Shown: piece by piece, positions 1 to 37,126 of the stretch
Layout: every line of letters begins with the position of its first letter
Position numbering within the stretch: the stretch's first letter is position 1
Virus record (IMG/VR): IMGVR_UViG_3300045988_013563
Span: 1-37,126 of that record
DNA from: a virus
DNA: 37,126 bases
Direction: 5' to 3' (one strand)
Program-made: the position numbers and the translations under genes
The notes under the pieces: generated by a model
Seen by the model: the letters and a program-made list of their open reading frames with translations, nothing else
Told to the model about the DNA's origin: nothing
The model's database searches: none

Positions 1-204
1 CCTAAGGGTGATACTGGTCCTCAGGGTGTTAAGGGTGCTACTGGTCCTCAGGGCCCTCAGGGTGTTAAGGGTGCTACTGGTCCTCAGGGCCCTCAGGGTG
101 TTAAGGGTGCTACTGGTCCTCAGGGTCCTCAGGGTGTTAAGGGTGCTACTGGTCCTCAGGGCCCTCAGGGTGTTAAGGGTGCTACTGGGGCACGCGGCAA
201 CAGG
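1..204 (+). repeat. Tandem 36-nt coding repeat (unit [12 protein letters not shown]), four full copies at 25..168 plus partial copies
   Basis: 25..60, 61..96 and 133..168 are identical. 97..132 differs by one synonymous base (ggc to ggt at 126). Gly-X-Y periodicity runs to about 201. Confidence 0.95.
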
Positions 205-1245
205 GTATACCTAACGCTCTCTGAGGTCAAACCGTCCAGTACATTACACTTGTGGAGTGATCTGATTCCAACCGTATCCGTGGAAGACCCTCCTATCATA
301 GGGGATTTTGCCATCACACCTGCTGGCAATCTCATGTCTATCACTGGTGTAACCACCGATAGCTCAGCTGGCGGCGGTGGCACGTATGCTGTCGGTCGCA
401 TTCTCACCAACCTGAAAGGGCAGAAAGGCGACAAGGGCGATGCCGGTCGGTGCGACTACACGCTTCCCGCAGCCACGAACACCACTCTCGGCGGTGTCAA
501 GGTCAGCCACGGTCTGAGAGTCGACTCTGATGGAGTGCTTAGTTCGGCCACATTTGGCGTTTTCAAAGATAATGACCCGCGGGTCGCCATCGCGGTCAGT
601 GCCGCGGGTGCGCTGTGCCTTGGCATCGACGTGAGATCATTCTTAGCGAAGAGAACTGATAAGAACGATGGGGGGTGGAATCTCACGCTTAAGCCAGCGA
701 CCGCATCTACTGTTGGTGGTGTCAAGATTGGCGCGGGAATCAACGTGTCGACCGACGGCACCATCGACGTGCGGGAACTGGTCGACCGCATCAGTCAGAT
801 GCAATCGAAGTACGATGCTCTCATCAGCTCCGCCACTTACGAGGTCGGCAGTGTTCTCACAAAGGGCACTTGGTATGATGACTATACTTGGAAGTTTTGC
901 CGGTTGCGAGTGGTCGGCGGTGTCTGCACACTGTCATTCTCTGCGACCCGCAAGACTGGCGCGTGGAATGCCAAGGCGTGGGATCAGGCGCATGTCCTTA
1001 CTCTCCCCGATGGTCTTGGCTCTCTCGGCGATCTTAATACGCCGATTGTGACTAACGCTAACGCTGAGCCGAATAACAACACGGCTTTGCAGATCGACGG
1101 CAACAAGGTGTTGTTCCGTCCTACCGTCAATGTCACTTACAACACCGGGACGTGGCTTCAAGGTAATGTCTCTTGGGTTGCAGCTGGCTCGCATGTGTCT
1201 GATGATGTCTCGCAGATGCCTGATGAGATCATCAGTGTCAAGTGA
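1..1245 (+). CDS. Tail fibre, C-terminal portion (5' part is 35875..37126 across the contig junction): collagen-like tract, fibre-repeat shaft, C-terminal head domain
   Basis: Frame 1 is open from base 1 ([20 protein letters not shown]...GARGNR) and runs into listed ORF 250..1245. Two shaft motifs are present: [20 protein letters not shown] and [21 protein letters not shown]. The stop TGA at 1243..1245 is followed by a second TGA. Confidence 0.85.
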
Positions 1246-1250
1246 TGAGG

Positions 1251-1299
1251 CATCGATGTGCAGGCGTTGATTGACCGCATCAGTCAGATGCAATCGAAG
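1251..1299 (+). repeat. Degenerate direct duplicate of fibre-gene segment 762..810, located just after the fibre stop codons
   Basis: The 27-nt block gaccgcatcagtcagatgcaatcgaag is identical at 784..810 and 1273..1299. The preceding 22 nt have 7 mismatches. The copy is in the same frame as the fibre ORF and encodes [18 protein letters not shown]-stop, compared with [16 protein letters not shown] in the gene. Confidence 0.9.
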
Positions 1300-1329
1300 G
1301 TAAAATAACAATCCAAGGAGGTAATTAAA

Positions 1330-1356
1330 ATGACAATGCAGGGAATCGTGGTGTAG
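1330..1356 (+). other. 8-codon mini-ORF (MTMQGIVV) behind a strong RBS; possibly the decapitated start of a lost gene
   Basis: AAGGAGG at 1315..1321, ATG at 1330, TAG at 1354..1356. It sits between the fibre gene and the homing endonuclease gene. Confidence 0.3.
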
Positions 1357-1369
1357 TGCTAGACTTGTA

Positions 1370-1429
1370 TAAGTACCGGCTAGGGTAGCTCCTGAAAAGG
1401 CGTTAATTCCCACGCTCTGCCGGTACTTA
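1370..1429 (+). other. Hairpin with 11-bp stem (taagtaccggc / gccggtactta) and 38-nt loop upstream of the HNH gene
   Basis: Perfect complementarity between 1370..1380 and 1419..1429. No T-run follows, so it is not a canonical terminator. Confidence 0.5.
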
Positions 1430-1467
1430 CACACTATGGGAATCGGTCACTTGGGAAGGTGATTGAC

Positions 1468-2070
1468 ATGACTATTGAAGTATGGCGTGACGTTCAAGGC
1501 TATGAAGGCTTGTACCAAGTCAGCGACATGGGAAACGTCAAGGGTTGTGAAAGAACAATCAAGCACCTAAATAAGTACGGCTTTATCGAAGAGCAGCACC
1601 GTAGTGAGCACCTGCTGAAACAGTATCCTAATGGCAGCAAAGGATACATGCACGTTGTCCTGTGCAAAGACGGTAAGACTAGGACGTTTCAAGTTCATAG
1701 GCTGGTAGCAACTGCGTTCTGCGATAACCAGAATAAATACGAGATAGTAGACCACATAGACGGGAATAAGCTCAACAACAACGCTTTAAACCTAAGGTGG
1801 TGTACTCGTTCGCAGAACACCGTATATGCTATCGAGCTTGGGCTTATCAACGGGGTAGAATCAGTGAAGGACATGTACACAGAGGAAGCTCGGAAACGTT
1901 GGGCAGATACCTGCTGCGTGAAGGTAATCAGAGACGATGGAGTTATATACCAATCAATGAGCGAAGCGGCTAGGGGAAACGGGCGGTGTTTGCATACTGT
2001 TCAAGCTAATATTAAAGGTGAAACGCATTTATGCAATGGACATAAGTTCAGAATATATAAGGAGGAATAA
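1468..2070 (+). CDS. Free-standing HNH homing endonuclease (NUMOD4-like N-terminus, HNH_3 core, C-terminal DNA-binding region)
   Basis: [19 protein letters not shown] (NUMOD4-type motif) and HRLVATAF...[18 protein letters not shown] (HNH). ATG 1468 lies 9 nt after GGAAGG and is preferred over GTG 1459. The gene is paralogous to 10039..10599. Confidence 0.85.
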
Positions 2071-2072
2071 TC

Positions 2073-3173
2073 ATGGCATTGCGAGGAGTTGATTGTAGTT
2101 CTTGGAACACTGGCATTGATTTCAATCAGGTTCCTGCGGATTTTGTTGTCGAAAAGGCTACCCAAGGTACGAATTATGTTAATCCTGATTGTGACAGGGT
2201 GGTTCAGCAGTGTATCCAGCTCGGCAAGTGCTGGGGCACGTATCACTATGTCGATGGTAGCGGCGCTATCGCGGAAGCTGACTATTATGTGAAGAATATC
2301 CAAGGCTATGTTGGCAAAGGTATTCTCGCGATCGACTGGGAGAGCGCGCAGAATAGGGCGTGGGGCAATTACGCATATCTTGAGGCGCTTGTTGCTCGCG
2401 TGATCGAACGCACGGGGGTGCGCCCGCTTATCTACGCTCAGGCTAGCGTCTACAATCAGGTCGCTGCGGTAGCCAAGAAGTATAATTTGGGACTCTGGAT
2501 CGCCCAATACGCCGATATGAGCGCGACAGGCTACCAAGACTCCCCTTGGAATGAGGGAGCCTATACGTGTGCTATTCGTCAGTATTCCTCTGCTGGGCGG
2601 CTTCCCGGCTGGAATGGCAATCTCGACTTGAACAAGTTCTATGGTGACGCTACCGCTTGGCGTAAGTACGCTGGTGCTTCCGGCACGGCTACTCCGGCAC
2701 CTAAGCCGGTTGACCCGCTCGCTGGCAAGAGTGATGCTCAGCTTGCCGACGATGTAATCGCCGGTAAATTCGGTGATGGTGATAATCGCAAGCGTGCGCT
2801 CGGCAATCGCTATGCCGCCGTGCAGGCTGTCGTGAATCAGAAGCTCGGCGCTTCCAATACGCCTGCCGCCCAGACATACACGGTCAAGCCCGGGGACACT
2901 CTCAGCGGTATCGCGGCGAAGTATGGGACTACGTGGCAGGCTCTCCAGCAGCTCAACGGCATCGCTGACGCTAACAGGATTTATCCGGGACAGGTGCTGA
3001 AGGTTACTGGCTCTGCTGCGGCCCCAGCTGCCAAGACCTACACTGTACGCTCCGGCGATACCCTCAGCGGTATCGCGGCCAAGTACGGCACGACTTGGCA
3101 ACACCTCCAGCAGATTAACGGCATCGCTGACGCTAACAAAATCTATCCGGGACAGGTGTTGAAGGTCGGCTGA
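2073..3173 (+). CDS. Endolysin: GH25 muramidase + CW_7-like repeat + 2 LysM domains
   Basis: N-terminus [35 protein letters not shown]...YHYV (GH25 pattern). The middle segment [38 protein letters not shown] is CW_7-like. Two 43-aa LysM copies, YTV(K/R)(P/S)[16 protein letters not shown]..., lie at 2877..3005 and 3039..3167. RBS is AGGAGG. Confidence 0.95.
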
Positions 3174-3182
3174 GGTATAAGA

Positions 3183-3232
3183 AAAGCCGTCGCGTGGGAG
3201 GAGAGGTAAGACCACGCGACGGCTTTCTTGTT
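3183..3232. terminator. Bidirectional intrinsic terminator between the endolysin and the convergent small gene
   Basis: 15-bp stem aaagccgtcgcgtgg (3183..3197) / ccacgcgacggcttt (3212..3226), with T-rich tracts on both strands. Confidence 0.8.
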
Positions 3233-3279
3233 CCATCATCACATCGTGCAGGTTCACCACTCCGGCACTTCCCAGCTTA

Positions 3280-3438
3280 TCACGCGTCCTTGCCGGTGAT
3301 ACGCAGTATCAGCATGCCCAAGATTGCAAGACCCGCGCCGATAAAGTTGATGTACATCGTGCTGGCATTTTCATTCATCGCCAATAGTAAGCCGATGAAG
3401 ATTAGTGCGGCGCTGAGGTTTTCGAGCTTGTCTTTCAT
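3280..3438 (-). CDS. 52-aa two-TM membrane protein (moron-like; not in the ORF track because it is under 60 aa)
   Basis: The reverse-strand ORF translates to MKDKLENLSAALIFIGLLLAMNENASTMYINFIGAGLAILGMLILRITGKDA. RBS AAGGAAAGGA precedes the ATG (3438). The gene has its own promoter upstream and a terminator downstream. Confidence 0.65.
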   Translation of the reverse strand: MKDKLENLSAALIFIGLLLAMNENASTMYINFIGAGLAILGMLILRITGKDA

Positions 3439-3494: not shown

Positions 3495-3544
3495 ATTCGG
3501 TGTGTCGTTTTTCACCAATATCATTGAATACAGGAGGTGCAGAA

Positions 3545-5218
3545 ATGCTCAGAATCTTCAGCCCTACAGACAGGGACTATAAATCGAATGGCGACAAGGT
3601 AATTCAGCCGCTAAAAGCGACAGTAAAAAAGGAAGATAACGACGCTTATTATCTCGATTTATCGTGCGGCACTGAATATCTACCGTGGATTAAGTCAGGC
3701 AATATTATTGTCGCGGATACGCCGCAAGGTGCGCAACCTTTCCGCATACTTAACCCTGAGATTACGCATACTAAGATCACTTGCAAATGCGACCACGTTT
3801 TTTTCGATAGCGCGAATTATTTGATTGCCGATTCATACGTGGTCGATTCCACGTGCAATCAGGCGCTAGACCATCTCAATACCGCTACGGAGCCAAAATC
3901 GCCATTCAAGACGGTTTCCGACATTAACACGATTAATTCCTTCAGGTGCGTGCGTAAATCGCTCTATGAGGCGATTCAGACGGTTCTGGAGCGATGGGGC
4001 GGACATCTGGTGCGCGACGGCTGGACTATCGGCATCCGGCAGAATATCGGCGCTGATAATGGCGTGGTCGTGCGCTATGGCAAAAACCTTAAGACTATCA
4101 CGGCGACTTACGACTGGAGCGATGTTTGCACTAAATTGCTGCCCGAAGGCTCTGACGGTATCCTGCTCAATGCTCTCGATAGCAAGCAGTCGATTTACAT
4201 GGAATCTGAAAAACAATACGATTTACCATATGTGAAAACCGTGCAATTTTCTCAGTCTGATATCAAGCAGGAGAATTACAAGACGCCAGACGGAAAACAT
4301 GACGATGAAACAGCGTATAAGAAGGCGCTAATCGCTGATTTACGTCAGCAGGCGCAGAAGTATTTGGAAGAGAATTGCGTGCCAAAAGTCAATTACAAGA
4401 TGAGTGCGAATCTTGAGAAAATCACGGATATTGGCGACACCATCGAAGTGATCGACGAGCGAATGGGTCTTGACATGCTCACGAACGTTATCAGCTTTGA
4501 ATATGACTGTATCCAGCGGCGCTACACATCCATCGAGTTCGGCACTTTCAGGCAGACTTTGGGCGGCTTGATGGGGTCGGTTCAGCAGACGGCTGCGGAC
4601 GCGGCGCAGGCGGTCAATTCCTCGATCGTGACCACGGTTAATGACCGATTGGATGAATCGGAATCGAAGATTAACAACATCTTCGGCGGCTCATACGTCA
4701 TTTATGACGGTGAGCAGATTCTGGTCGTGGATAGTCTGCCGAAGGAATCGGCGCATAATGTTCTGCGGATTAATAGTGCTGGAATCGGCTTCAGTTCTAG
4801 CGGGATTAATGGTAGTTTTACGAGCGCTTGGACGATTGACGGCACTCTTAATATGCAGAGTATCAATGTCATCAATCTGGTGGCTGACCTTATCAAGGGC
4901 GGCACGCTGACGCTCGGCGGACAGGACAACGGCAATGGCCTGATGCTTGTCAAGTCGGCGGCTGGAGCGACATTGGGGCGCTTGGATAATTCGGGCTTGA
5001 CGATGTGGGCGCAGGACGGCTCGCACATCGTGATCAGCGCGGCTAACGGCTTGACTGGCTATGATTCGGCTAACAAGATTACGTACACGGCTCGCAATGG
5101 CGTTTTCTCGATGCGCAACGGTTACGTTGAGGAAGGTTTGGCGGTTGGCGGCAAGCTCAAAATCGTACCGGTGACCAGTGGCGACAATACTGGCGTTGCC
5201 TTCGTGGCATTGTCTTAA
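3545..5218 (+). CDS. Tail-associated protein Tal (prophage-tail / minor structural protein N-terminal family)
   Basis: MLRIFSPTDRDYKSNGDKVIQPLKATVKKEDNDAYYLDLSC...ADTPQGAQPFRI matches the typical siphovirus Tal N-terminal pattern. ATG 3545 follows AGGAGG. The upstream extension of ORF 3500 lacks an RBS. Confidence 0.8.
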   Translation: MLRIFSPTDRDYKSNGDKVIQPLKATVKKEDNDAYYLDLSCGTEYLPWIKSGNIIVADTPQGAQPFRILNPEITHTKITCKCDHVFFDSANYLIADSYVVDSTCNQALDHLNTATEPKSPFKTVSDINTINSFRCVRKSLYEAIQTVLERWGGHLVRDGWTIGIRQNIGADNGVVVRYGKNLKTITATYDWSDVCTKLLPEGSDGILLNALDSKQSIYMESEKQYDLPYVKTVQFSQSDIKQENYKTPDGKHDDETAYKKALIADLRQQAQKYLEENCVPKVNYKMSANLEKITDIGDTIEVIDERMGLDMLTNVISFEYDCIQRRYTSIEFGTFRQTLGGLMGSVQQTAADAAQAVNSSIVTTVNDRLDESESKINNIFGGSYVIYDGEQILVVDSLPKESAHNVLRINSAGIGFSSSGINGSFTSAWTIDGTLNMQSINVINLVADLIKGGTLTLGGQDNGNGLMLVKSAAGATLGRLDNSGLTMWAQDGSHIVISAANGLTGYDSANKITYTARNGVFSMRNGYVEEGLAVGGKLKIVPVTSGDNTGVAFVALS

Positions 5219-5233
5219 TTAGGAGGATAAATC

Positions 5234-7051
5234 ATGGCTTTATCGGGACAAATTACAGGTGTTTATCGTGGATATACTCTGCAAGCTAATTGGACGGCTG
5301 CGCAGAATATCAGCGGCAATTACTCCGATATTACGATCCATCATGTACTCGTAATCGGCTCAGCGTATTCGCTCAAGATTTCCAGCCGCTCGAACACTTG
5401 CTCGGTCGATGGCGCGGCTCAAAATTACACGTCACCGGCAATCAATCAAAAGGGCGGCTCGGTCACACTCGGCACGACCACACATCGCGTCGACCATAAT
5501 GCAGACGGCTCGAAGACATGCACAATCAACGATATCTTTAACGTCAATGCGACGATTGACGGCTCGCAGATATCCAGCATCACAGCAAGCGGCAGCATTA
5601 CGCTTGACAATATCCCGCGACAGGCGACAATCACCAGCGCCAATGACTTTACGGATACTGGCACGCCATCTCTTGCATACAGCAATGCCGGGGGTTTCAC
5701 GGCTGACGCATATCTGGAGTTCGCTCCAGTCGGCTCAGGCACTCAGATCATGCGCAAGAACGCCATCACAGGCAAGAGTGGCACGTATACGTTTGTCCTC
5801 ACGGATGCCGAGCGTGAGACACTGAGGGCGGCGTGTACCGGCGTGTCGATGCCGGTGCGGTATGCGCTGCGTACCTTTATCGGCGGCAAAGAGTATTACA
5901 GTACGCTTGATCGCACCATGAGCATGAGCGATTCCGCGCCTATCCTCGGAGCAGTGTCTTACAAGGACGCTAACGCTGCCACGGTGGCTGTGACTGGTGA
6001 TAATCAGGTGATTGTCCAGCGTCAATCTGACTTGCAAGTGTCTTTCGGCGCGGCTACAGGACAGAAGGGCGCGACAATCGCAAGATACGAGGCGACTTTC
6101 GCTGGAGTGACCAAGACGGCTACCAGCGTCGCCACGCTTGATTTCGGTGCTGTGGACGTATCCTCAGACATGCCGCTAGTCTTTAGCGCGATTGATTCGC
6201 GCGGGTTTAAAACGTCCACAATCATCAATGTCAAGACTGAAGCATGGTGGGAGCCGACATCGAGTATCGACTTGCAGCGCAAGAATAATTTCGAGCCTGA
6301 AACGCACATTACCGCGAACGCATGGTATGCGAGCCTAGACGCTAAAAACGAGGTCACGATCACGGCGAAATATCGCAAGGCTGGGAGCAGTGACGCATGG
6401 GCTACCGTGGCGCTCGCTAATGGCGTGGAATCTACTGTTACGTGCGAGAGAGATTATGCGTATGAGTGGGAAGTCACGACGGCTGACAAGCTCGGGAGCA
6501 CTACACAGTCGCTGACACTTGGTCGCGGTATCCCAACCTTCTTCATCGATACTGCTAAATCCAGTGTCGGCGTTAATTGCTTCCCAGCTTCGAGTGGCGT
6601 ACTCCAGCTTGGCGAGAGTGCGTTTCTCACGGCTCAGGGAGCATACCCGGTCGGCTCGATTTATTTGAGCGTCAATGACACTGATCCGGCTACGCTTTTC
6701 GGCGGCACTTGGGAGCGAATATCGCAAGGTCGATTCCTGTTAGGCGCAGGATCTAATGTGGCTAACAGCACCGACTACTGGGGGAGCTACGCCGCAGGTG
6801 CCGAGAATTTCCCGGCAGGAGAGATGGGTGGCGAAGTCACACACACTCTCACAGTGGCCGAGATGCCGTCGCACACTCACCCCGAGAGGCTTGAGTGGAG
6901 TAACACCGCGGGGTGGGGAGTCACAGGCACTGGCACTGGCTCCAATGCCGTCGTGGATCAAGGAAGTGTGACTGGAGCGACTGGTGGAGGCAAGCCCCAC
7001 AATAATATGCCGCCATATTTGGTCTGCTACATGTGGGCTAGAATAGGCTAG
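5234..7051 (+). CDS. Receptor-binding / tail protein with C-terminal tail-collar domain
   Basis: The C-terminus has YPVGSIYLS...LFGGTWERI...GEVTHTLTVAEMPSHTH...GGGKPHNNMPPYLVCYMWARIG (tail-collar motif set). The N-terminus resembles siphovirus structural proteins (HNADGSK). RBS is AGGAGG. Confidence 0.8.
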   Translation: MALSGQITGVYRGYTLQANWTAAQNISGNYSDITIHHVLVIGSAYSLKISSRSNTCSVDGAAQNYTSPAINQKGGSVTLGTTTHRVDHNADGSKTCTINDIFNVNATIDGSQISSITASGSITLDNIPRQATITSANDFTDTGTPSLAYSNAGGFTADAYLEFAPVGSGTQIMRKNAITGKSGTYTFVLTDAERETLRAACTGVSMPVRYALRTFIGGKEYYSTLDRTMSMSDSAPILGAVSYKDANAATVAVTGDNQVIVQRQSDLQVSFGAATGQKGATIARYEATFAGVTKTATSVATLDFGAVDVSSDMPLVFSAIDSRGFKTSTIINVKTEAWWEPTSSIDLQRKNNFEPETHITANAWYASLDAKNEVTITAKYRKAGSSDAWATVALANGVESTVTCERDYAYEWEVTTADKLGSTTQSLTLGRGIPTFFIDTAKSSVGVNCFPASSGVLQLGESAFLTAQGAYPVGSIYLSVNDTDPATLFGGTWERISQGRFLLGAGSNVANSTDYWGSYAAGAENFPAGEMGGEVTHTLTVAEMPSHTHPERLEWSNTAGWGVTGTGTGSNAVVDQGSVTGATGGGKPHNNMPPYLVCYMWARIG

Positions 7052-7182: not shown

Positions 7183-8661
7183 TTAGATTTTGAGAGTCAC
7201 GCGCAGGCGTGGGTTCAATCCCGTGCCGCGCTCGGTCTTTTCATATTCTATTCTTTCCGCCATGCCTTTCAGCAGGCGGTTGCGGTTTTCACTGTCGAGT
7301 GTCCAGTATTCGTCCAATGCCTTCGATAGTACCGGGATCTGTTTCAGGTCGTGTCCCGGTTCGGAGTCTTGAAGGGTTTCGAGCCGTGCAAGTAGTTCCG
7401 CCTTTTCCGCGTTGACCTTTTGCACCCTTTGCAAATATGTGGACCTGTCATATACGCCCGTTTCGTAGGCTTCGCAGGCGCGTTCGAGCATTTTCTGCCG
7501 TTTGTCTATCTCTGCCTCTAGGACTTGCAGTTCGTTGGTGTTGTCATTCGCTTTTGTTTCGTATCCCGCCCACACGTAGGTCAGGCGTTCCAATTCCGCT
7601 TGTATGGCGTCCACCGTCAGCCTTTCCACTATGTCGAGTTTCGTGCTTTTGGTCGTGCAGCCGAACGTCTTGCATATGAGGTATTCCGCTTGCGCGCCGT
7701 TTGTGCGTTGCATGGTCTTGCCGCATTGGGAGCATACGACCAATGATGCTAAAGGATTGCGGTTGGTGTGTGCGTGGCGTGTGCGTGTCTCCATCGTCTT
7801 TAGCCGCGCGGCGCATTGGTCGAATATGTCGGCGCTGACTATCGGCTCGTGTCTGCCTTGCACGTACTCCATACCGCTGTTTCTAACGTATGTTTCTTTT
7901 ATTTCACCGTCGATTATCCGGCGGTTTTTTATTTTTCGTTTGGTTTGCAGTTCCCCGAGGTATGTGCGGTTTCGCAGTATTTCGCCGATTCGTGTGCGGG
8001 TGAAGTCGTTGCCCGTGCGTTGCTTGACTCCGGACGCTTGCAGTTCGCGCAATATGTCGTTGATCCTTGCGCCTTGCGCGTATCGGTCGAATATGAGGCG
8101 CACGACTTGTGCCTCGCTGGGATCCGGGCATAACGACCACCCTTTGCCATCCTTGCGTTTCCCGTAGCCGTATGGCGGTACGCTGCCGATGAAATACCCT
8201 TCTTGCTGTGCTTGCATCCGTCCCCTGTGCAATCTGCGTTTAATCATCTTGTATTCGCGTCGGCTCATGAACAAGCCAAATTCAAAGAATTCCTCGTCGA
8301 AGGAATCATCGCCAGCAAGGTCGTAGGTCTTTGTGAGCGTGATTATTTTCGTATCACTGAATTGGAAGGATTTGAGTATGCGCGCTTGGTCTGCGCCATT
8401 CCCGCGACTCAATCGCTCAAGCTCGATGCAGAGTACACCTGTGTACATTCCGGCTTCGACGGCTTTAAGCAGTCTCTGCATCTGGGGGCGTGCCTCGATG
8501 CTCTCTCCTGACACGATCTCGCGGTATATGTGTGCCTCGTCCACATATATGTTGTTCCTATCTGCTAAGTCGCGCAGCATTTCTTCGTGTCGTGCCAAGG
8601 TGTTCTCGTGCCCCAGTTCTTCGTCTGCACGTGATTTTCGTAAATATAGTGCGTATGCCAT
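7183..8661 (-). CDS. int: Large serine recombinase (integrase)
   Basis: N-terminal resolvase fold YALYLRKSRADEE with the catalytic Ser, a central recombinase domain, and a zinc-ribbon CSQCGKTMQR...ICKTFGC followed by a coiled coil. 492 aa. Confidence 0.95.
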   Translation of the reverse strand: MAYALYLRKSRADEELGHENTLARHEEMLRDLADRNNIYVDEAHIYREIVSGESIEARPQMQRLLKAVEAGMYTGVLCIELERLSRGNGADQARILKSFQFSDTKIITLTKTYDLAGDDSFDEEFFEFGLFMSRREYKMIKRRLHRGRMQAQQEGYFIGSVPPYGYGKRKDGKGWSLCPDPSEAQVVRLIFDRYAQGARINDILRELQASGVKQRTGNDFTRTRIGEILRNRTYLGELQTKRKIKNRRIIDGEIKETYVRNSGMEYVQGRHEPIVSADIFDQCAARLKTMETRTRHAHTNRNPLASLVVCSQCGKTMQRTNGAQAEYLICKTFGCTTKSTKLDIVERLTVDAIQAELERLTYVWAGYETKANDNTNELQVLEAEIDKRQKMLERACEAYETGVYDRSTYLQRVQKVNAEKAELLARLETLQDSEPGHDLKQIPVLSKALDEYWTLDSENRNRLLKGMAERIEYEKTERGTGLNPRLRVTLKI

Positions 8662-10038: not shown

Positions 10039-10599
10039 ATGGAAGAGTGGCGAGACATAGAAGGCTACGAGGGGTATTACCAAGTCAGCAATCTTGGGAA
10101 TGTCCGAAGCCTTGACAGGACACTGCGAGGCAGAGACGGAGTCTTGTACCCGCATAGAGGCGTGGTGATGAAGCCGACAACCAACAAAAACGGCTACAAG
10201 TATGTCGTGCTGAAGAAAGATGGTAAGTTCAAAGGATTTACCATCCACGGGTTGGTCGCGCGGGCATTCCTTGAACGTGACCCACTGCGCACTGAAATAA
10301 ACCACAAAGATGGCATCAAGACCAACAACAACGTCTCTAATCTTGAATGGGTGACGCACAGTGAAAATGAAAAACACGCTATTGCAACAGGTCTGATGGA
10401 CATGGCAAAAATCCAGCGGATTTCTGCTGAGAAGCGCAGAAAACCTGTGAAACAGATGGGAGAAGATGGAAATGTGATTGCCGTATTCGGGAGTGCAACT
10501 GAAGCATCTAAGGTACTTGGAATATACAGGCGCAGCATCGCAAGGTGCTGCGAAGGCGAGTATAAACATGCTGGCGGATACCGTTGGCAATTCGCGTAG
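10039..10599 (+). CDS. Free-standing HNH homing endonuclease (NUMOD4 + HNH_3 + C-terminal HTH)
   Basis: WRDIEGYEGYYQVSNLGNVRS; HGLVARAF...INHKDGIKTNNNVSNLEWV; C-terminal SATEASKVLGIYRRSIARCC...GGYRWQF. It is inserted between Gp157 and ERF. Confidence 0.85.
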   Translation: MEEWRDIEGYEGYYQVSNLGNVRSLDRTLRGRDGVLYPHRGVVMKPTTNKNGYKYVVLKKDGKFKGFTIHGLVARAFLERDPLRTEINHKDGIKTNNNVSNLEWVTHSENEKHAIATGLMDMAKIQRISAEKRRKPVKQMGEDGNVIAVFGSATEASKVLGIYRRSIARCCEGEYKHAGGYRWQFA

Positions 10600-10610
10600 A
10601 GGAGTGAATC

Positions 10611-11222
10611 ATGGCAGAAGACAAAAGCCTTGCAAATAAGCTGTGCGATATCCAGATGCGGCTCAAGTCGCCAAAAGACCAGCACAATGGATTCGGCAAC
10701 TACAACTACAGGAGTCTTGAGAATATATTGGAGTCGGTGAAACCTCTGCTCCATGAGTACGGTTTGATTCTTACTCTCAGCGATGACATTGCGGAAGTCG
10801 GTGGACGTGTGTATGTGAAGTCTACTGCAGTCATCTCAGACGGCACTGACTCTATCAGCACCACGGCTTTCGCTCGCGAGGATGAATCGAAGAAAGGAAT
10901 GAGCGATCCACAAATCACTGGTGCATGTTCGTCATACGCGAGGAAGTATTGTGCCCAAGGTTTATTTGCTATCGATGATAGCAAAGACCCGGACAGTGAA
11001 TCATATCAGCGTAGAGGTGGCAAAGAATCAGGCTCAGCGCCGATTATGTGTGATCTGTGTCATAAGCCTATCAAGCCGATGGCTAAGCGTGGCGGCGGTG
11101 AGATGCCGCCGGAAGCGGTAGCCAAGTGGACTAGAGCAAAGACTGGAATGGCCGTGTGCGGTGACTGCTACCGGAAACGTGAAGCACAACAATCACAACC
11201 AACTGAGGGAGGAAACGAGTAA
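10611..11222 (+). CDS. ERF-family single-strand annealing protein with C-terminal zinc ribbon
   Basis: PKDQHNGFGNYNYRSLENILESVKPLLHEYGL...KKGMSDPQITGACSSYARKYCAQGLFAIDD is the ERF pattern. C-terminus has CDLCHK...CGDCYRK. Confidence 0.8.
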   Translation: MAEDKSLANKLCDIQMRLKSPKDQHNGFGNYNYRSLENILESVKPLLHEYGLILTLSDDIAEVGGRVYVKSTAVISDGTDSISTTAFAREDESKKGMSDPQITGACSSYARKYCAQGLFAIDDSKDPDSESYQRRGGKESGSAPIMCDLCHKPIKPMAKRGGGEMPPEAVAKWTRAKTGMAVCGDCYRKREAQQSQPTEGGNE

Positions 11223-32557: not shown

Positions 32558-35122
32558 ATGAGTGGTGGATTCGGTGGTGCCGTCAAGCTAACCGGTGAAT
32601 CCAGCTATCGCGCGGCGTTGGCGCGTATCTCGCAGAATCTTCGTGAAGTCGGTTCCGAAATGAAGGTTGTCAGCTCCCAGTATGCAAAGAGCGACAATTC
32701 GCAGGCGGCGTTGACGGCACGGACTGAAGCGCTGAATAACAAGATGGCTGTGCAGAAGGAAAAGCTTAGTGCCCTTAATGCGCAGTATCGCGCCATGAGT
32801 GCGCAGTACACTGCGAACAATACGAAGCATAAGGAGCTTGTCGCAAGCTATGATGCTGAGAAGCAGAAGCTGGCGCAGATCGAAGCGACGCTTGGCAAAA
32901 CATCACCTGAGTATCAGGCGCAGGCGAAAGTCGTGGCGAATCTAGCTCGTGATGTGGATAAGTCTTCGGCTGCTGTCAATGCCAATGAGATCGCCATGAG
33001 CAAGATGCGCACGCAGATGAATAATGCTCAGGCGGATATCAACAAGACGGATAGTGAGATCAAGAGCTTGTCGCCTGATATGGATAAGGCGGGCAAGGCT
33101 GCTAGTGAGCTTGGCGGGGAAGCTGCTAAGAGTGGTAGGCAGGCGCAGGAAGCTAGCGGCGGGTATACCGTCTTCAAGAATGTGCTGGCGAATCTTGCGA
33201 CGAGTGCGATTGGTGCCGCCGTCAATGGGCTTAAGCAGCTTGGTTCCGCTGTCCTGAATGTCGGCAAGCAGGCTATCGAGGCTTACTCGCAGAATGAGCA
33301 GCTCGTCGGTGGCGTGCAGACGCTTTTCAAGGATTCCGCTGGGATCGTGCAGGATTACGCGAATAACGCCTATAAGGCGGCTGGCATGAGCGCTAACGAG
33401 TACATGAATACCGTCACGGGCTTTTCAGCGTCGCTGATCCAGTCGCTTGGTGGTGACACGAAGGCGGCTGCTGAGCTTGGTAATACAGCCGTGCAGGATA
33501 TGTCCGATAATGCTAACAAGATGGGCACGGATATTGAGAGTATCCAGCAGACATACCAGAGCTTGGCTCGTGGCAATTACGCTATGCTTGACAATTTGAA
33601 GCTCGGCTATGGTGGTACGAAGTCTGAGATGGAGCGTCTCATGGCGGACGCTGAGAAGCTGACCGGCGAGCACTACACGATAGGTGATTTTGGCGATACG
33701 GTGAAGGCTATCCATGCCGTGCAGACGCAAATGGGCATCACCGGCACGACGGCCAAGGAAGCGTCCACGACCATCGAAGGCTCGATGAACGCCATGAAGG
33801 CTAGCTGGCAGAATCTTCTCGCCGGGATGTCCGATAGTGGCGCGAATATGGACGGCTTAATCAACAATCTTGTTGATTCGGTCAATACTTTCGCGTCGAA
33901 TATCATGCCGCGCATCGCGCCTTTGATTAACGGCATGGTGCAGTCTGCCGTGCAATTGCTGCCACAAGCCGTGAACATGATCACGACGCAATTGTTGCCG
34001 CTTATCACGGCTCAGGTACCGAATATCGTCAATGGCCTGTCTCAGGTGGTGCAGGCGATTGTCGCGGCACTCCCGCAGATCATGAGTGCGTTGACTGCCG
34101 CCTTGCCGCAGATCGTGCAAGCAATCCTCACGCTCTTGCCTCAACTGCTTGATGCTGGTATGCAGATGCTGACGATGCTGATTCAGGGCTTTGCTCAGGC
34201 GCTGCCGCAACTGATTACGATGTTGCCGACGATTGTTCGGCAGATCGTGGACGTGATTTTGCAGAATCTGCCGCTGATATTGCAGGCTGGCATGGAGTTG
34301 CTTATGGGGCTTGCGCAGGGTTTGATTCAGGCGCTGCCAGAGCTTATCCAGATGCTTCCCGGTATCGTCATGCAGATAACGGACACTCTGCTGGATAATC
34401 TGCCTTTGCTTATCACTGCCGGTATTCAGATTCTGGTTGCCTTGATCCAAGGCATTACTCAGGCTATCCCCCAGCTGATTGCGATGCAACCGAAGATTGT
34501 CATGCAGATCGTGAGCACGCTCAGCGCGCATTTGCCTGAGATCATCAGCACAGGCTTGCAGATGATGGTACAGCTTGCTGCTGGAATCATAAGCGGTATC
34601 GGCAATGTCGTGAGCGGTGCTAGAAACGTCGCGCGAAATATCGTCAGCGCGTTGCGTGAAGCTCCCGGCCAAGTGATTAGCATCGGCAAGAATATAGTCA
34701 CTGGCGTTTGGGAAGGCATCAGCAGCTCGATTGGCTGGCTGCGCGATAAGGTCAGCGGCTGGGTCTCCGGGATCATGCAGGACATCAAGGGCTTCTTCGG
34801 AATCCACTCGCCTTCCCGCTTAATGCGCGATGAAGTCGGCAAGTATCTGGCTGAGGGTATCGGGGTCGGCTTCGAGGACGAGATGGGCAATGTGTCTAAG
34901 CAGATGATTGATGCAATGCCTAGCACTGATGCTTTCGCACAGACGTACGATCTGGGTGGTGTTTCAGCGGCTCAGGCGGCTTCCAATGGCTACGGCTACA
35001 ATGCACAGGCTAATATCGTGGACGCTATCGTGGACGCATTGCAAAATGTTCGCGTGGTGCTTGATGACGAAGTCGCGGGACGATTCGTGACCAAGACTGT
35101 CGCAGCCGCTATCTACAGATAG
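32558..35122 (+). CDS. Tape measure protein
   Basis: 854 aa. N-terminal coiled coil, a central domain, hydrophobic 44-aa repeats, and the conserved C-terminal FGIHSPSRLMRDEVGKYLAEGIGVGF. Confidence 0.95.
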   Translation: MSGGFGGAVKLTGESSYRAALARISQNLREVGSEMKVVSSQYAKSDNSQAALTARTEALNNKMAVQKEKLSALNAQYRAMSAQYTANNTKHKELVASYDAEKQKLAQIEATLGKTSPEYQAQAKVVANLARDVDKSSAAVNANEIAMSKMRTQMNNAQADINKTDSEIKSLSPDMDKAGKAASELGGEAAKSGRQAQEASGGYTVFKNVLANLATSAIGAAVNGLKQLGSAVLNVGKQAIEAYSQNEQLVGGVQTLFKDSAGIVQDYANNAYKAAGMSANEYMNTVTGFSASLIQSLGGDTKAAAELGNTAVQDMSDNANKMGTDIESIQQTYQSLARGNYAMLDNLKLGYGGTKSEMERLMADAEKLTGEHYTIGDFGDTVKAIHAVQTQMGITGTTAKEASTTIEGSMNAMKASWQNLLAGMSDSGANMDGLINNLVDSVNTFASNIMPRIAPLINGMVQSAVQLLPQAVNMITTQLLPLITAQVPNIVNGLSQVVQAIVAALPQIMSALTAALPQIVQAILTLLPQLLDAGMQMLTMLIQGFAQALPQLITMLPTIVRQIVDVILQNLPLILQAGMELLMGLAQGLIQALPELIQMLPGIVMQITDTLLDNLPLLITAGIQILVALIQGITQAIPQLIAMQPKIVMQIVSTLSAHLPEIISTGLQMMVQLAAGIISGIGNVVSGARNVARNIVSALREAPGQVISIGKNIVTGVWEGISSSIGWLRDKVSGWVSGIMQDIKGFFGIHSPSRLMRDEVGKYLAEGIGVGFEDEMGNVSKQMIDAMPSTDAFAQTYDLGGVSAAQAASNGYGYNAQANIVDAIVDALQNVRVVLDDEVAGRFVTKTVAAAIYR
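34067..34594 (+). repeat. Four tandem 132-nt (44-aa) degenerate repeats within the tape measure gene
   Basis: Units start at 34067, 34199, 34331 and 34463. Each begins A(L/I)P(Q/E)(I/L)... and ends ...(I/A)QG(F/L/I)xQ. Confidence 0.8.
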
Positions 35123-35140: not shown

Positions 35141-35863
35141 ATGAAAAGTTTCGGCTATCAGCGTCCTTGGGTGCTGATCAACGACATGCCTTCGTATGGC
35201 GTGGACGGATTGATTATCACGTCACTGCCGCCGATCACCAAGCCGAAAATGCGGTATTCGAGCGAGGAAATCGACGGGCGCGACGGTGATATCATCACCA
35301 CGCTTGGCTATCAGTCTTACGACAAGACGGTAAGCATCGGTCTACACGGCGACTTCGATATCGATAAGGTGGTGGAGTTCTTCGCCACTAGCGGAACTAT
35401 CACATTCAGCAATGAGCCTGATAAAGTGTACCGATTCCAGCAGCTTGAAAACATTGATTTTGAGCGGCTTGTGCGGTATCGGACGGCTAACGTCAGCCTG
35501 CACGTCCAGCCTTTTAAGACTGGCAGGCTCCAGCGCCCTAAAGTCTTCAGCAGTGCTGACGCTCAAGCGGTTGTGACTAATGCCGGTAATGTGGTGGCGG
35601 CTCCGAAGCTCACGATTAAGGCTAGCGGCAATATCGGGCTGTATCTCGATGGCTCGCAGGTCTTGCAGGTAGCCAACACGGGCGATTACACGCTTGTGAT
35701 CGATGTGGCCAATCTGGAAGCGTCCACACCTGAAGGCGTATTGATGAACCGCCATATTACCGGCGACTATCAGCAGCTGGCGCTTTCGCCGGGCAAACAT
35801 TCGATAAAATGGAGTGGGAGCGTGGAGTCTCTCACCATCGAAGACTATTCACGATGGATTTAG
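35141..35863 (+). CDS. Distal tail protein (Dit)
   Basis: Position right after the tape measure. [28 protein letters not shown]...[15 protein letters not shown] is the siphovirus Dit pattern. Confidence 0.85.
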
Positions 35864-35874
35864 GAGGATTGATT

Positions 35875-37126
35875 ATGGCTGTAATTACCCAAAATTACGA
35901 CATTGATTTGAAGGCTACCGGCGAGCGTCCGGTAGTGAAAATGAGTCAGTTTGATACCGGCTCACGTACTATCGTGTTCACGGTCTATGATGGTCACGAG
36001 TTGGCGCAGATTGACGGCATGGTGGCTCGTGTCGATGGTACTCGGGCTGATGACGTGGGGTTCTCCCGCACTTGCACTGTGGGCACCGGTAGCAAGGTGA
36101 GCTTCACCATCTCGCAGGAGATGACCAATGTCGCGGGCAAACACACGGCGGAATTGGTGATTCTCGACGAGGATGGGAACCCTATCGGCACGCAGAATTT
36201 CATCATTGAGGTGGAAGCGGCCAGTATGCGACGTGATTCGGCGGCTAGCGCTGATGACCGCACGCTTTACGATCAATACACTGACAGCGTGGAGAAGAAG
36301 TTTTCAAAGCTTTCCGCGTCGCTGACCGCCAAGGCTGATGCTATGCACAAAACCGCGGAGGATATCAGCGGGCTTGTCGGCGCGAGCAGCAAACCGACCA
36401 CGATCTACAGCGAGGATGTCACTCTTAACAGCGTGGACACTATCCACGTGCGACTGACATATGACCCGCTGACCGCGCTTGTCCACGCTCACGCATACGG
36501 CTCTCTTACCCTCAGCACCAGAAACGATCAGACATACAGTCTATGCAAAATCGATAAACAATATTGCCCGGACAAGGAACTTTTCGACTATACTTCCGGC
36601 AGCGGCACTGGATACTACAGGATTTCGACGGACAACATGAATGGGGTTGCCTCCGGTGACACGTCGGAAACATCGGATTGCCAGAATTTTTACATCCAGA
36701 GAGAAGACGGCGTGTGCACTCTGCGATTCCATCGCAGCAAGCTACCTGACCATGCGGCTACCTACGAGCTTTCGCTGAATGCCGTCTGGTATGCTAGCGG
36801 CGGCAAGTATATTGGCGTCACGTCTATCGGCACTGGCGGTAATACGCTGAAGATTGGTAAGACCACGACGGGTGCGCCGGGTACGCAGGCTAGCGTCGTG
36901 AATTCCGGGACGGCTAAGGATGTTGTGCTTGCCTTCACTATCCCTAAGGGTGATACTGGTCCTAAGGGTGATACTGGTCCTCAGGGTGCTACTGGTCCTC
37001 AGGGTGCTACTGGTCCTAAGGGTGATACTGGTCCTAAGGGTGATACTGGTCCTCAGGGTGTTAAGGGTGCTACTGGTCCTCAGGGCCCTCAGGGTGTTAA
37101 GGGTGCTACTGGTCCTCAGGGCCCTC
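35875..37126 (+). CDS. Tail fibre, N-terminal portion (BppU_N-like baseplate anchor, central domain, start of collagen tract); 3' partial, continues at base 95/1
   Basis: ATG 35875 follows [48 protein letters not shown]...[28 protein letters not shown] is BppU_N-like. No stop occurs before the window end. Not in the ORF track. Confidence 0.85.
36943..37126 (+). repeat. Collagen-like Gly-X-Y coding repeats (PKGDTG / PQGATG / [12 protein letters not shown] units)
   Basis: 18-nt units cctaagggtgatactggt and cctcagggtgctactggt are each duplicated, and the 36-nt unit seen at the window start then follows. Confidence 0.95.
37033..37126 (+). repeat. Terminal direct overlap: identical to bases 1..94 (circular closure signature)
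   Basis: Base-by-base comparison of 37033..37126 with 1..94 shows no mismatch. The overlap preserves the fibre reading frame. Confidence 0.9.

Follow-up and report, generated by a model that had tools for sequence, protein, structure and literature searches.

The record IMGVR_UViG_3300045988_013563, a complete IMG/VR virus record of 37,126 nt that is called the window here, carries the gene of a fibre with a neck and a head domain, and directly behind this gene a second, downstream copy of the neck sequence. This downstream copy (the ghost, or relic) probably represents, at a probability that we put at about 0.8, a pseudogene left over from the neck and coiled coil in which the fibre itself once ended, judging from sequence comparisons with related loci. 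The case is one of known modular fibre evolution combined with the known scarring by an HNH cassette, seen across multiple genomes, and does not represent a new mechanism. The features of the fibre gene and of the relic are as follows (related loci are numbered with L and fibre homologues with P).

35875..37126, plus strand: 5′ part of the fibre gene, with the BppU_N anchor followed by collagen GXY repeats (Pfam BppU_N and Collagen)
1..1245, plus strand: 3′ part of the fibre gene, with collagen repeats, GGVK..DGT shaft repeats, neck, head, acidic tail and the first stop (list of open reading frames, Pfam/PHROG, homologues)
762..810, plus strand: functional neck copy of the repeat, within a predicted helix at ~769-825
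832..1179, plus strand: head domain proper, a predicted beta-sandwich (AlphaFold2, Foldseek)
1192..1248, plus strand: disordered acidic tail (18 residues, pLDDT <50), then the double stop TGA TGA
1251..1308, plus strand: ghost, a putative relic, not translated, of the neck and coiled coil that once formed the C-terminus of the fibre (18 residues), whose core at 1273-1299 equals 784-810

A second neck copy behind the fibre gene

The original prediction had pointed to a repetition of the segment 762-810 just after the TGA TGA, and a repeat search of the window confirmed it: 762-810 and 1251-1299 form a direct repeat of 49 nt, 86% identical and 489 nt apart. Its exact 27-mer core, GACCGCATCAGTCAGATGCAATCGAAG, has exactly two copies in the window (784-810 and 1273-1299) and was found in 0 of 100 shuffles, even with three mismatches allowed. 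At the codon level the two copies correspond to 763-810 and 1252-1299, both in frame 1, which is the fibre frame; after the fibre come TGA TGA GGC and then ATC GAT GTG ... AAG GTA AAA TAA, which encodes an 18-residue peptide ending in a stop.

A protein search with the C-terminal 275 residues of the fibre gave 56 homologue clusters, and a scan of IMG/VR for the exact core gave two related phages. The exact ghost-end pattern was found in metagenome contigs only in the contig of L003, already retrieved, and a related-locus search with the fibre C-terminus returned just the two contigs already known. At least six assemblies, independent of one another and obtained from different samples, contain the same relic (L003/L014, L002/L005, L009, L010, L011 and L015), and an assembly artefact, which the original prediction had itself raised as an objection, is therefore ruled out as the source of the repeat. 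The states in which the relic and its equivalents are found among the relatives are listed below.

L003: relic one base (+1) out of frame, after a single stop
L010: relic out of frame, with an internal TAG and the terminal stop lost
L011: relic core of the ALESK type, with a 2-nt deletion
L002/L005: relic core of the ALESK type, with an internal TGA; the head ends earlier (…AAGSQS, then stop)
L009: a deletion fuses the 3′ half of the relic in frame to the head (…SDDPISQVQSKVG, then stop; ...PISQVQSKVG, then stop)
L015: small indels bring the whole relic into the open reading frame; the fibre ends in …VVDGQAAIDRIAAPESK, then stop, or ...QAAIDRIAAPESK, then stop
L008: head internal, followed by shaft repeats and coiled coil

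Since the relic occurs in many frames and states, its reading frame in the window is one state among many and provides no evidence of recoding. That the ghost lies in the fibre frame, as had been claimed, holds for the window; this is not conserved, as the relic is off by one base in L003 and L010. Note also that an origin of the TGA TGA from a frameshifted GAT GAT (Asp-Asp) was considered and dropped, because, in the light of L011, a deletion between TGATGA-like strings accounts better for the state of L002.

Headless and headed fibres among the relatives

Several related fibres (P0027, P0028, P0029, P0033, P0038, P0039, P0049 and the fibre of L013) are headless and end at the neck with a short coiled coil, the terminus of this type being …IDVQALVDRIAALESKVAALEAK and a stop (...GINVSSDGTIDVQALVDRIAALESKVAALEAK and a stop in P0028). 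In headed fibres the same neck (…DRISQMQSK) runs on as YDALIS… into a domain of ~120 residues. The two kinds coexist on the same phage backbone. In one relative, P0007/L008, the head is internal and is followed by two further shaft repeats and the coiled coil; the bracketing of the head by repeats, proposed earlier for the window, is found here with both neck/shaft repeats translated.

At the DNA level, the headless genes of L006, L012 and L013 read ...ATCGACGTGCAGG...GACAGGATTGC.GC.CTCGAA.CCAAGGT.GC.GCACTCGAAGCAAAGTAA, and in L006 and L012 the ribosome-binding site (RBS) and start of the endolysin gene, ATGACA(T/C)T..., stand directly behind the end of the fibre. When positions 1204-1366 of the window were aligned by MAFFT with the fibre ends of L006, L012 and L013, the segment 1252-1348 proved collinear with them from the start of the neck to the endolysin start codon, interrupted by just one gap of 18 columns, to which part of the last heptad is lost. 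The collinearity through the endolysin start therefore points to the ghost being the former 3′ terminus of the fibre gene, still followed by the former start of the endolysin gene. The relic is both homologous to and collinear with the functional C-terminus of head-free relatives, which is what characterises a displaced terminus. By blastn, the homology of headless relatives to the window extends up to ~786 and is found again from 1315. The original prediction had regarded the repeats as the scar of a head replacement; a recombination scar at a conserved neck, with a true mosaic boundary, is indeed present, but the alternatives are head present and head absent, all 26 heads found among the relatives (26/26) being of one family.

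According to the displaced-terminus reading, the fibre would exist in two forms. The headless form would consist of the neck, a short trimeric coiled coil and a stop, followed by the endolysin RBS and start; in the headed form, a receptor-binding-type beta-sandwich of ~145 residues would be joined inside the neck helix, following DRISQMQSK. Genomes with a head would never have lost the old terminus, which would lie just behind the head, where it decays freely, and in the window it would have been cut off by the TGA TGA. We infer that the direction was the gain of a head rather than the loss of a distal segment.

A probable gene-conversion patch in the relic

The likeness between the relic and the functional neck is unevenly distributed. 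In the window, in L004 (= L003) and in L010, the relic core is identical to the functional neck of the same genome (27/27), and the first 21 nt match at just 13-16/21 positions; the chance that all seven mismatches fall within the first 21 of 48 positions is ~0.002 (hypergeometric). The relic core of L005 matches its own neck at 17/27 positions versus 23/27 for the headless terminus of L012. The relic flanks of the window and of L011 are near-identical despite their differing cores. The simplest reading of these patterns is a short-patch gene conversion, from the functional neck to the relic, that would have taken place in the lineage of the window; the patch would have overwritten a headless-type (ALESK) core that is still kept in L011 and L002/L005. 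In eight head-bearing loci, moreover, no other 27-nt window of the neck-head module is conserved as well as 784-810 (98% versus 87% overall), which is what one would expect of an exchange linker. The ERF-family single-strand annealing recombinase encoded at 10611-11222 on the plus strand (Pfam ERF, E=5e-35) could plausibly have carried out these exchanges over short homology, as Rad52-like phage recombinases work efficiently where homology is short or diverged (PMC3945230).

Four points weigh against this account. The core may have been imported by an independent recombination event instead of by gene conversion. Headless fibres could have arisen by deletion, and ghost-bearing ones by truncation, from a P0007-like ancestor whose head lay between two translated necks. 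An upstream extension of the relic into the last fibre codons (~1227-1251) was marginal and hence is not claimed: the score obtained with L006 was reached by 41/2000 shuffles, and the other headless loci were not significant. Finally, the relatives are all metagenomic contigs, with no isolate or host among them.

The head as a mobile module with a predicted receptor-binding-type fold

An AlphaFold2 model of neck and head, built from 24 homologues, reached a pLDDT of 80.7 and a pTM of 0.70. It contains a helix at residues 3-21 that spans the 810 boundary, a beta-sandwich at residues 24-139 with pLDDT >90 over most of its length, and a disordered acidic tail at residues 144-160 (pLDDT <50), whose length and junction differ among the relatives. 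In a Foldseek search against the PDB, the best-scoring solved structures were receptor-binding heads, namely those of Listeria phage PSA gp15, lactococcal TP901-1 ORF49 and bIL170, with marginal scores (E ~2e-3 to 1e-2, TM 0.43-0.55, TMt 0.75 to 2fsd); sequence identity to solved heads is 10-15%, and PDB entry 3d8m is among the matches. Against BFVD, viral proteins annotated as receptor-binding proteins (RBPs) were matched at E ~6e-6, the best unnamed matches at ~1e-7, and many predicted viral RBPs at 1e-7 to 1e-4. It is reasonable, from the predicted model, to consider the domain after the neck as a receptor-binding-type head at the level of the fold. The same head is joined to other shafts at other boundaries in P0022, P0023 and P0024 and is therefore a mobile module. 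That heads are interchangeable at the neck is known from an experimental TP901-1/p2 chimera (PMC3893620).

At the other end of the fibre, residues 31-156 of the open reading frame 35809-37125 match Pfam PF10651 (BppU_N; E=2.7e-5, 24.4 bits against a cut-off of 23.1), a family precomputed for most of the fibre homologues too. As a separate observation, the neck of P0020 is without 11 residues (…DRIS|SATYEV…), which resembles a deletion between two short 'IS' codon repeats; the neck therefore tolerates shortening by 11 residues.

An HNH cassette and a decapitated endolysin start

Twenty nucleotides beyond the relic begins a second scar, composed of the following features.

1315..1348, plus strand: putative relic RBS and first six codons of the resident endolysin gene (the open reading frame MTMQGIVV with its stop spans 1330-1356)
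1353..2058, plus strand: HNH cassette, with hairpins and most of the HNH gene (1468-2070); 84% identical to L013
1366-1433: long hairpin with arms 1366-1380 and 1419-1433
2059..3173, plus strand: current endolysin gene with its own RBS and the start MALRGVD... (Pfam; L011 alignment)

The RBS with its 8-codon open reading frame, the long hairpin and the HNH gene are located where they had first been described. The HNH gene product matches NUMOD4 (E=9e-12) and HNH_3 (E=3e-11) in Pfam and PHROG 59 (E=4e-44), and the gene is that of a free-standing predicted homing endonuclease. It is present in L013 at the same fibre-endolysin junction and absent from L002, L003, L006, L009, L010, L011 and L012. 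An insertion that some relatives have and others lack, and that has left a decapitated gene start behind, agrees with the earlier proposal that the HNH gene may have remodelled this junction.

The RBS and open reading frame start at 1315-1348 match the RBS and ATGACA(A/T)TG... endolysin starts of L003, L009, L010, L006 and L012. Behind the relic, L003, L009 and L010 carry AAGGAGGTAA...ATGACAATGAATGGTATTGAT, the endolysin N-terminus being MTMNGIDISSW, and in L006 this N-terminus is MTLQGID. In the window, 1330-1348 (ATGACAATGCAGGGAATCG) equals such an endolysin start and is followed by 4-5 filler bases; from 1353 there is a continuous 84% alignment with L013 that takes in the long hairpin, a second hairpin, the NUMOD4/HNH_3 gene and a new RBS with endolysin start. 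The blastn homology to HNH-free relatives stops at 1346-1348 and resumes at 2059 (L011) or at 2139-2154 (others). The L011 alignment resumed at 2059 overlaps the segment of L011 that is also aligned to 1315-1346, and 2059-2092 is the second copy of this RBS and start duplication. The endolysin start of the cassette, MALRGVD in the window and MALQGID in L013, is equivalent to MSLRGID / MALQGID of intact relatives, and the last codons of the HNH gene overlap the endolysin RBS brought by the cassette.

MTMQGIVV is thus best described, as far as the alignments go, as the decapitated start of an endolysin gene and not of a holin gene. It had been suggested that it might be a holin N-terminus and that the HNH gene occupies a holin slot; neither suggestion holds, as HNH-free relatives show an endolysin start at this place (MTMNGID / MTLQGID) and no relative has a holin between fibre and endolysin. 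We propose that the hairpin and HNH cassette of ~0.7 kb would have arrived carrying its own endolysin RBS and start; it would have replaced the 5′ end of the resident endolysin gene, the first 19 nt of which would be left within the 8-codon open reading frame. In L013 the same block is found behind a headless fibre, without a decapitated start. As the left junction differs between the window and L013, at least one of the insertions took place by illegitimate or short-homology joining and not by clean homing.

Three further observations concern this region. A second hairpin of 10 bp at 1443-1466, just after the long one, encloses the Shine-Dalgarno sequence of the HNH gene (GGAAGGTGA), and the same leader is conserved in L013; to judge from its position, this hairpin may serve the translational control of the endonuclease. 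The endolysin gene (2073-3173) is a patchwork when compared with L004, L010, L011 and L013 in 60-nt windows, with identities of ~50-60% in the first window and of 97-100% in isolated later ones; thus one segment is 100% identical to L011 and another 98% identical to L010. In L007 (5603-5660), L008 (4960-5040) and L005 (~4570-4650) the spacer between fibre and endolysin is of another type, which contains ATGGCATTG... and then a stop, ~35 nt upstream of the real endolysin start (MSLRGID). On the strength of a 9-nt match, this sequence may perhaps be another decapitated endolysin start of the MAL.. type.

Alternative explanations

Of the other explanations, the one that survives best is an active cassette switch, in which the neck copies are kept as recombination sites for deleting or exchanging the head, and the fibre is toggled between its headed and headless forms. 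The identical 27-nt core, refreshed by conversion, shows that the two copies interact; the phage encodes ERF, and such enzymes act on short or diverged homology (PMC3945230); both kinds of fibre are found on the same backbone, L008 has its head between two translated repeats, and the neck core is the best-conserved DNA of the module. However, no fibre ending in ...SQMQSKVK and a stop was found among the 56 homologue clusters, the predicted deletion-junction pattern had 0 matches in the viral contigs of IMG/VR, and the coiled coil of the deletion product would be shorter than that of any natural headless fibre. In relatives, moreover, the relic has acquired stops and frameshifts or no longer has the identical core, so that it is not under evident selection. 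We regard such a switch as unlikely. A shade less likely still is a related proposal, that the neck pair is a maintained, ERF-driven device in which conversion keeps the untranslated copy in step with the functional neck, rare crossovers shed the head precisely, and double crossovers with co-infecting relatives install it. If this were true, a phage population would hold a built-in headed/headless polymorphism of host range.

A local tandem duplication of the neck-head unit in the lineage of the window, with subsequent deletion of the second head, would mean that the ghost was never a headless end. The identity of the ghost core with the functional neck core in the window, L003 and L010 is what a recent duplication would leave. 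Against this, the 5′ part of the ghost matches its own neck at 14/21 positions versus 14-17/21 for headless necks, the ghosts of L002/L005, L011 and L015 have the headless-type ALESK core, and the ghost end (AAG GTA AAA TAA and the RBS) is collinear with headless termini and not with a neck-head junction. These observations make a duplication improbable.

Translational recoding, by which the in-frame ghost would be expressed through stop readthrough or frameshifting as part of a minor isoform with a C-terminal helix, appears far less probable again. It is true that the ghost is in frame and open in the window and that the homologous segment is translated as part of the fibre in L015 and L009, but two consecutive TGA codons precede the ghost, the frame differs in L003 and L010, stops lie within the relic in L010 and L005, and no recoding signal was seen.

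Streptococcus and Staphylococcus phages are known to have lysin-gene introns with HNH endonucleases. If the endolysin gene were split by a group I intron, with the HNH gene inside and MTMQGI as exon 1, this would be in keeping with these and with the structured RNA upstream of the HNH gene (z = -2.9); such an intron was rejected, with as little credence as recoding, as a search of 1200-2200 gave no Rfam intron match at E up to 10, the downstream endolysin is complete, with its own RBS and the full-length N-terminus MALRGVD, and L013 has the same cassette without an upstream exon-like fragment. A diversity-generating retroelement or invertase switch was rejected as well, since the repeats are direct and the seven mismatches are not confined to the adenines of either copy; no reverse transcriptase or invertase is annotated within ~6 kb of the repeats (the other open reading frames of the window were not scanned), and of site-specific recombinases just one was found, the serine integrase at 7183-8661.

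Comparison with known systems

As in the RBPs of lactococcal siphophages (TP901-1 BppU/BppL, p2, bIL170), the fibre studied here has an N-terminal BppU_N anchor and, further on, a presumably trimeric neck that leads into a small head predicted as a beta-sandwich, for which Foldseek gave marginal similarity to TP901-1 ORF49 and bIL170. Differently from the lactococcal arrangement, in which BppU and BppL are separate, a single fibre of ~800 residues here combines anchor, collagen shaft and head; in addition, the neck is here predicted to be an alpha-helical coiled coil, and the gene is placed behind Dit and ahead of the endolysin, Tal following the lysis gene.

The tips of phage adhesins are swapped by recombination at conserved linkers, as in the gp37/gp38 motifs of T-even phages and at the collagen-like repeats that flank the variable region of Streptococcus thermophilus phage RBPs. 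Here too, mosaic modules are set apart by a short stretch of highly conserved DNA, the neck core, which indicates where exchange occurs. In contrast to these systems, the choice is between presence and absence of the head, and the displaced terminus is kept as a visible relic with a later, probable gene-conversion patch.

In Rhs/CdiA polymorphic toxin genes, displaced 'orphan' C-terminal fragments lie directly downstream, begin with the junction motif and are without a start codon of their own. Similarly, a new C-terminal module would here have been joined at a conserved junction motif and the old piece left just downstream, although this piece is a coiled coil of 18 codons without known activity and belongs to a structural gene of a phage rather than to a toxin/immunity locus.

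The HNH gene resembles free-standing phage HNH genes (I-HmuI-like, T4 Mob/Seg) in its NUMOD4/HNH_3 pair, its intergenic position between conserved genes, its presence or absence at one locus, the flanking target-gene sequence carried over and the structured leader over the RBS. It departs from clean HNH homing in that its left junction is not the same in the window and L013.

Modular evolution of RBPs, displaced C-terminal relics and scars of mobile endonucleases are all of known kinds. What the present loci add is a natural series of head gain or loss in a helical neck, from headless through a head between two necks and a head with translated relic to a head with dead relic; they also indicate that a non-coding relic is overwritable by its functional paralogue over as little as 27 nt. 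The series can be used to set safe domain boundaries for the analysis of RBPs in uncultured gut-type phages. For annotation, neither the 8-codon open reading frame nor the in-frame 'extension' of the fibre should be called a gene.

Genome layout

The "direct terminal repeat" of the record is a 94-nt collagen-like GXY tandem repeat within the fibre gene (1-94 / 37033-37126), and joining the ends of the record gives a single in-frame fibre open reading frame of 823 codons from 35809. Since the terminal repeat consists of GXY repeats of the fibre, the number of GXY units across the join, and hence the length of the fibre, is uncertain. The genes around the join are arranged as follows.

32558-35122: tape measure protein
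35141-35863: Dit
35875 to 1245 across the join, plus strand: fibre (BppU_N anchor, collagen, shaft repeats, neck, head)
1468-2070, plus strand: HNH gene (NUMOD4 and HNH_3; Pfam)
2073-3173, plus strand: endolysin gene (GH25, CW_7 and two LysM; Pfam)
3280-3438, minus strand: small membrane open reading frame
3500-5218: Tal-like protein
5234-7051: DUF859/Gp10_C protein
7183-8661, minus strand: serine integrase

The block of fibre, endolysin and small minus-strand membrane open reading frame between Dit and Tal recurs in all related contigs examined (loci L006-L011); the odd order of fibre, endolysin and Tal, being common to every related contig fetched, is therefore a family trait and no mis-assembly. 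Among isolated phages, the sole Megablast match to positions 1-3300 of the window is 52 nt in the HNH gene, and tblastn of shaft, neck and head gave no match. A host prophage was sought in genome contigs with the N-terminus of the fibre and then with Tal, with no match either time. Finally, a paralogous NUMOD4/HNH_3/I-HmuI-like endonuclease gene (10039-10599) lies directly upstream of the ERF gene.

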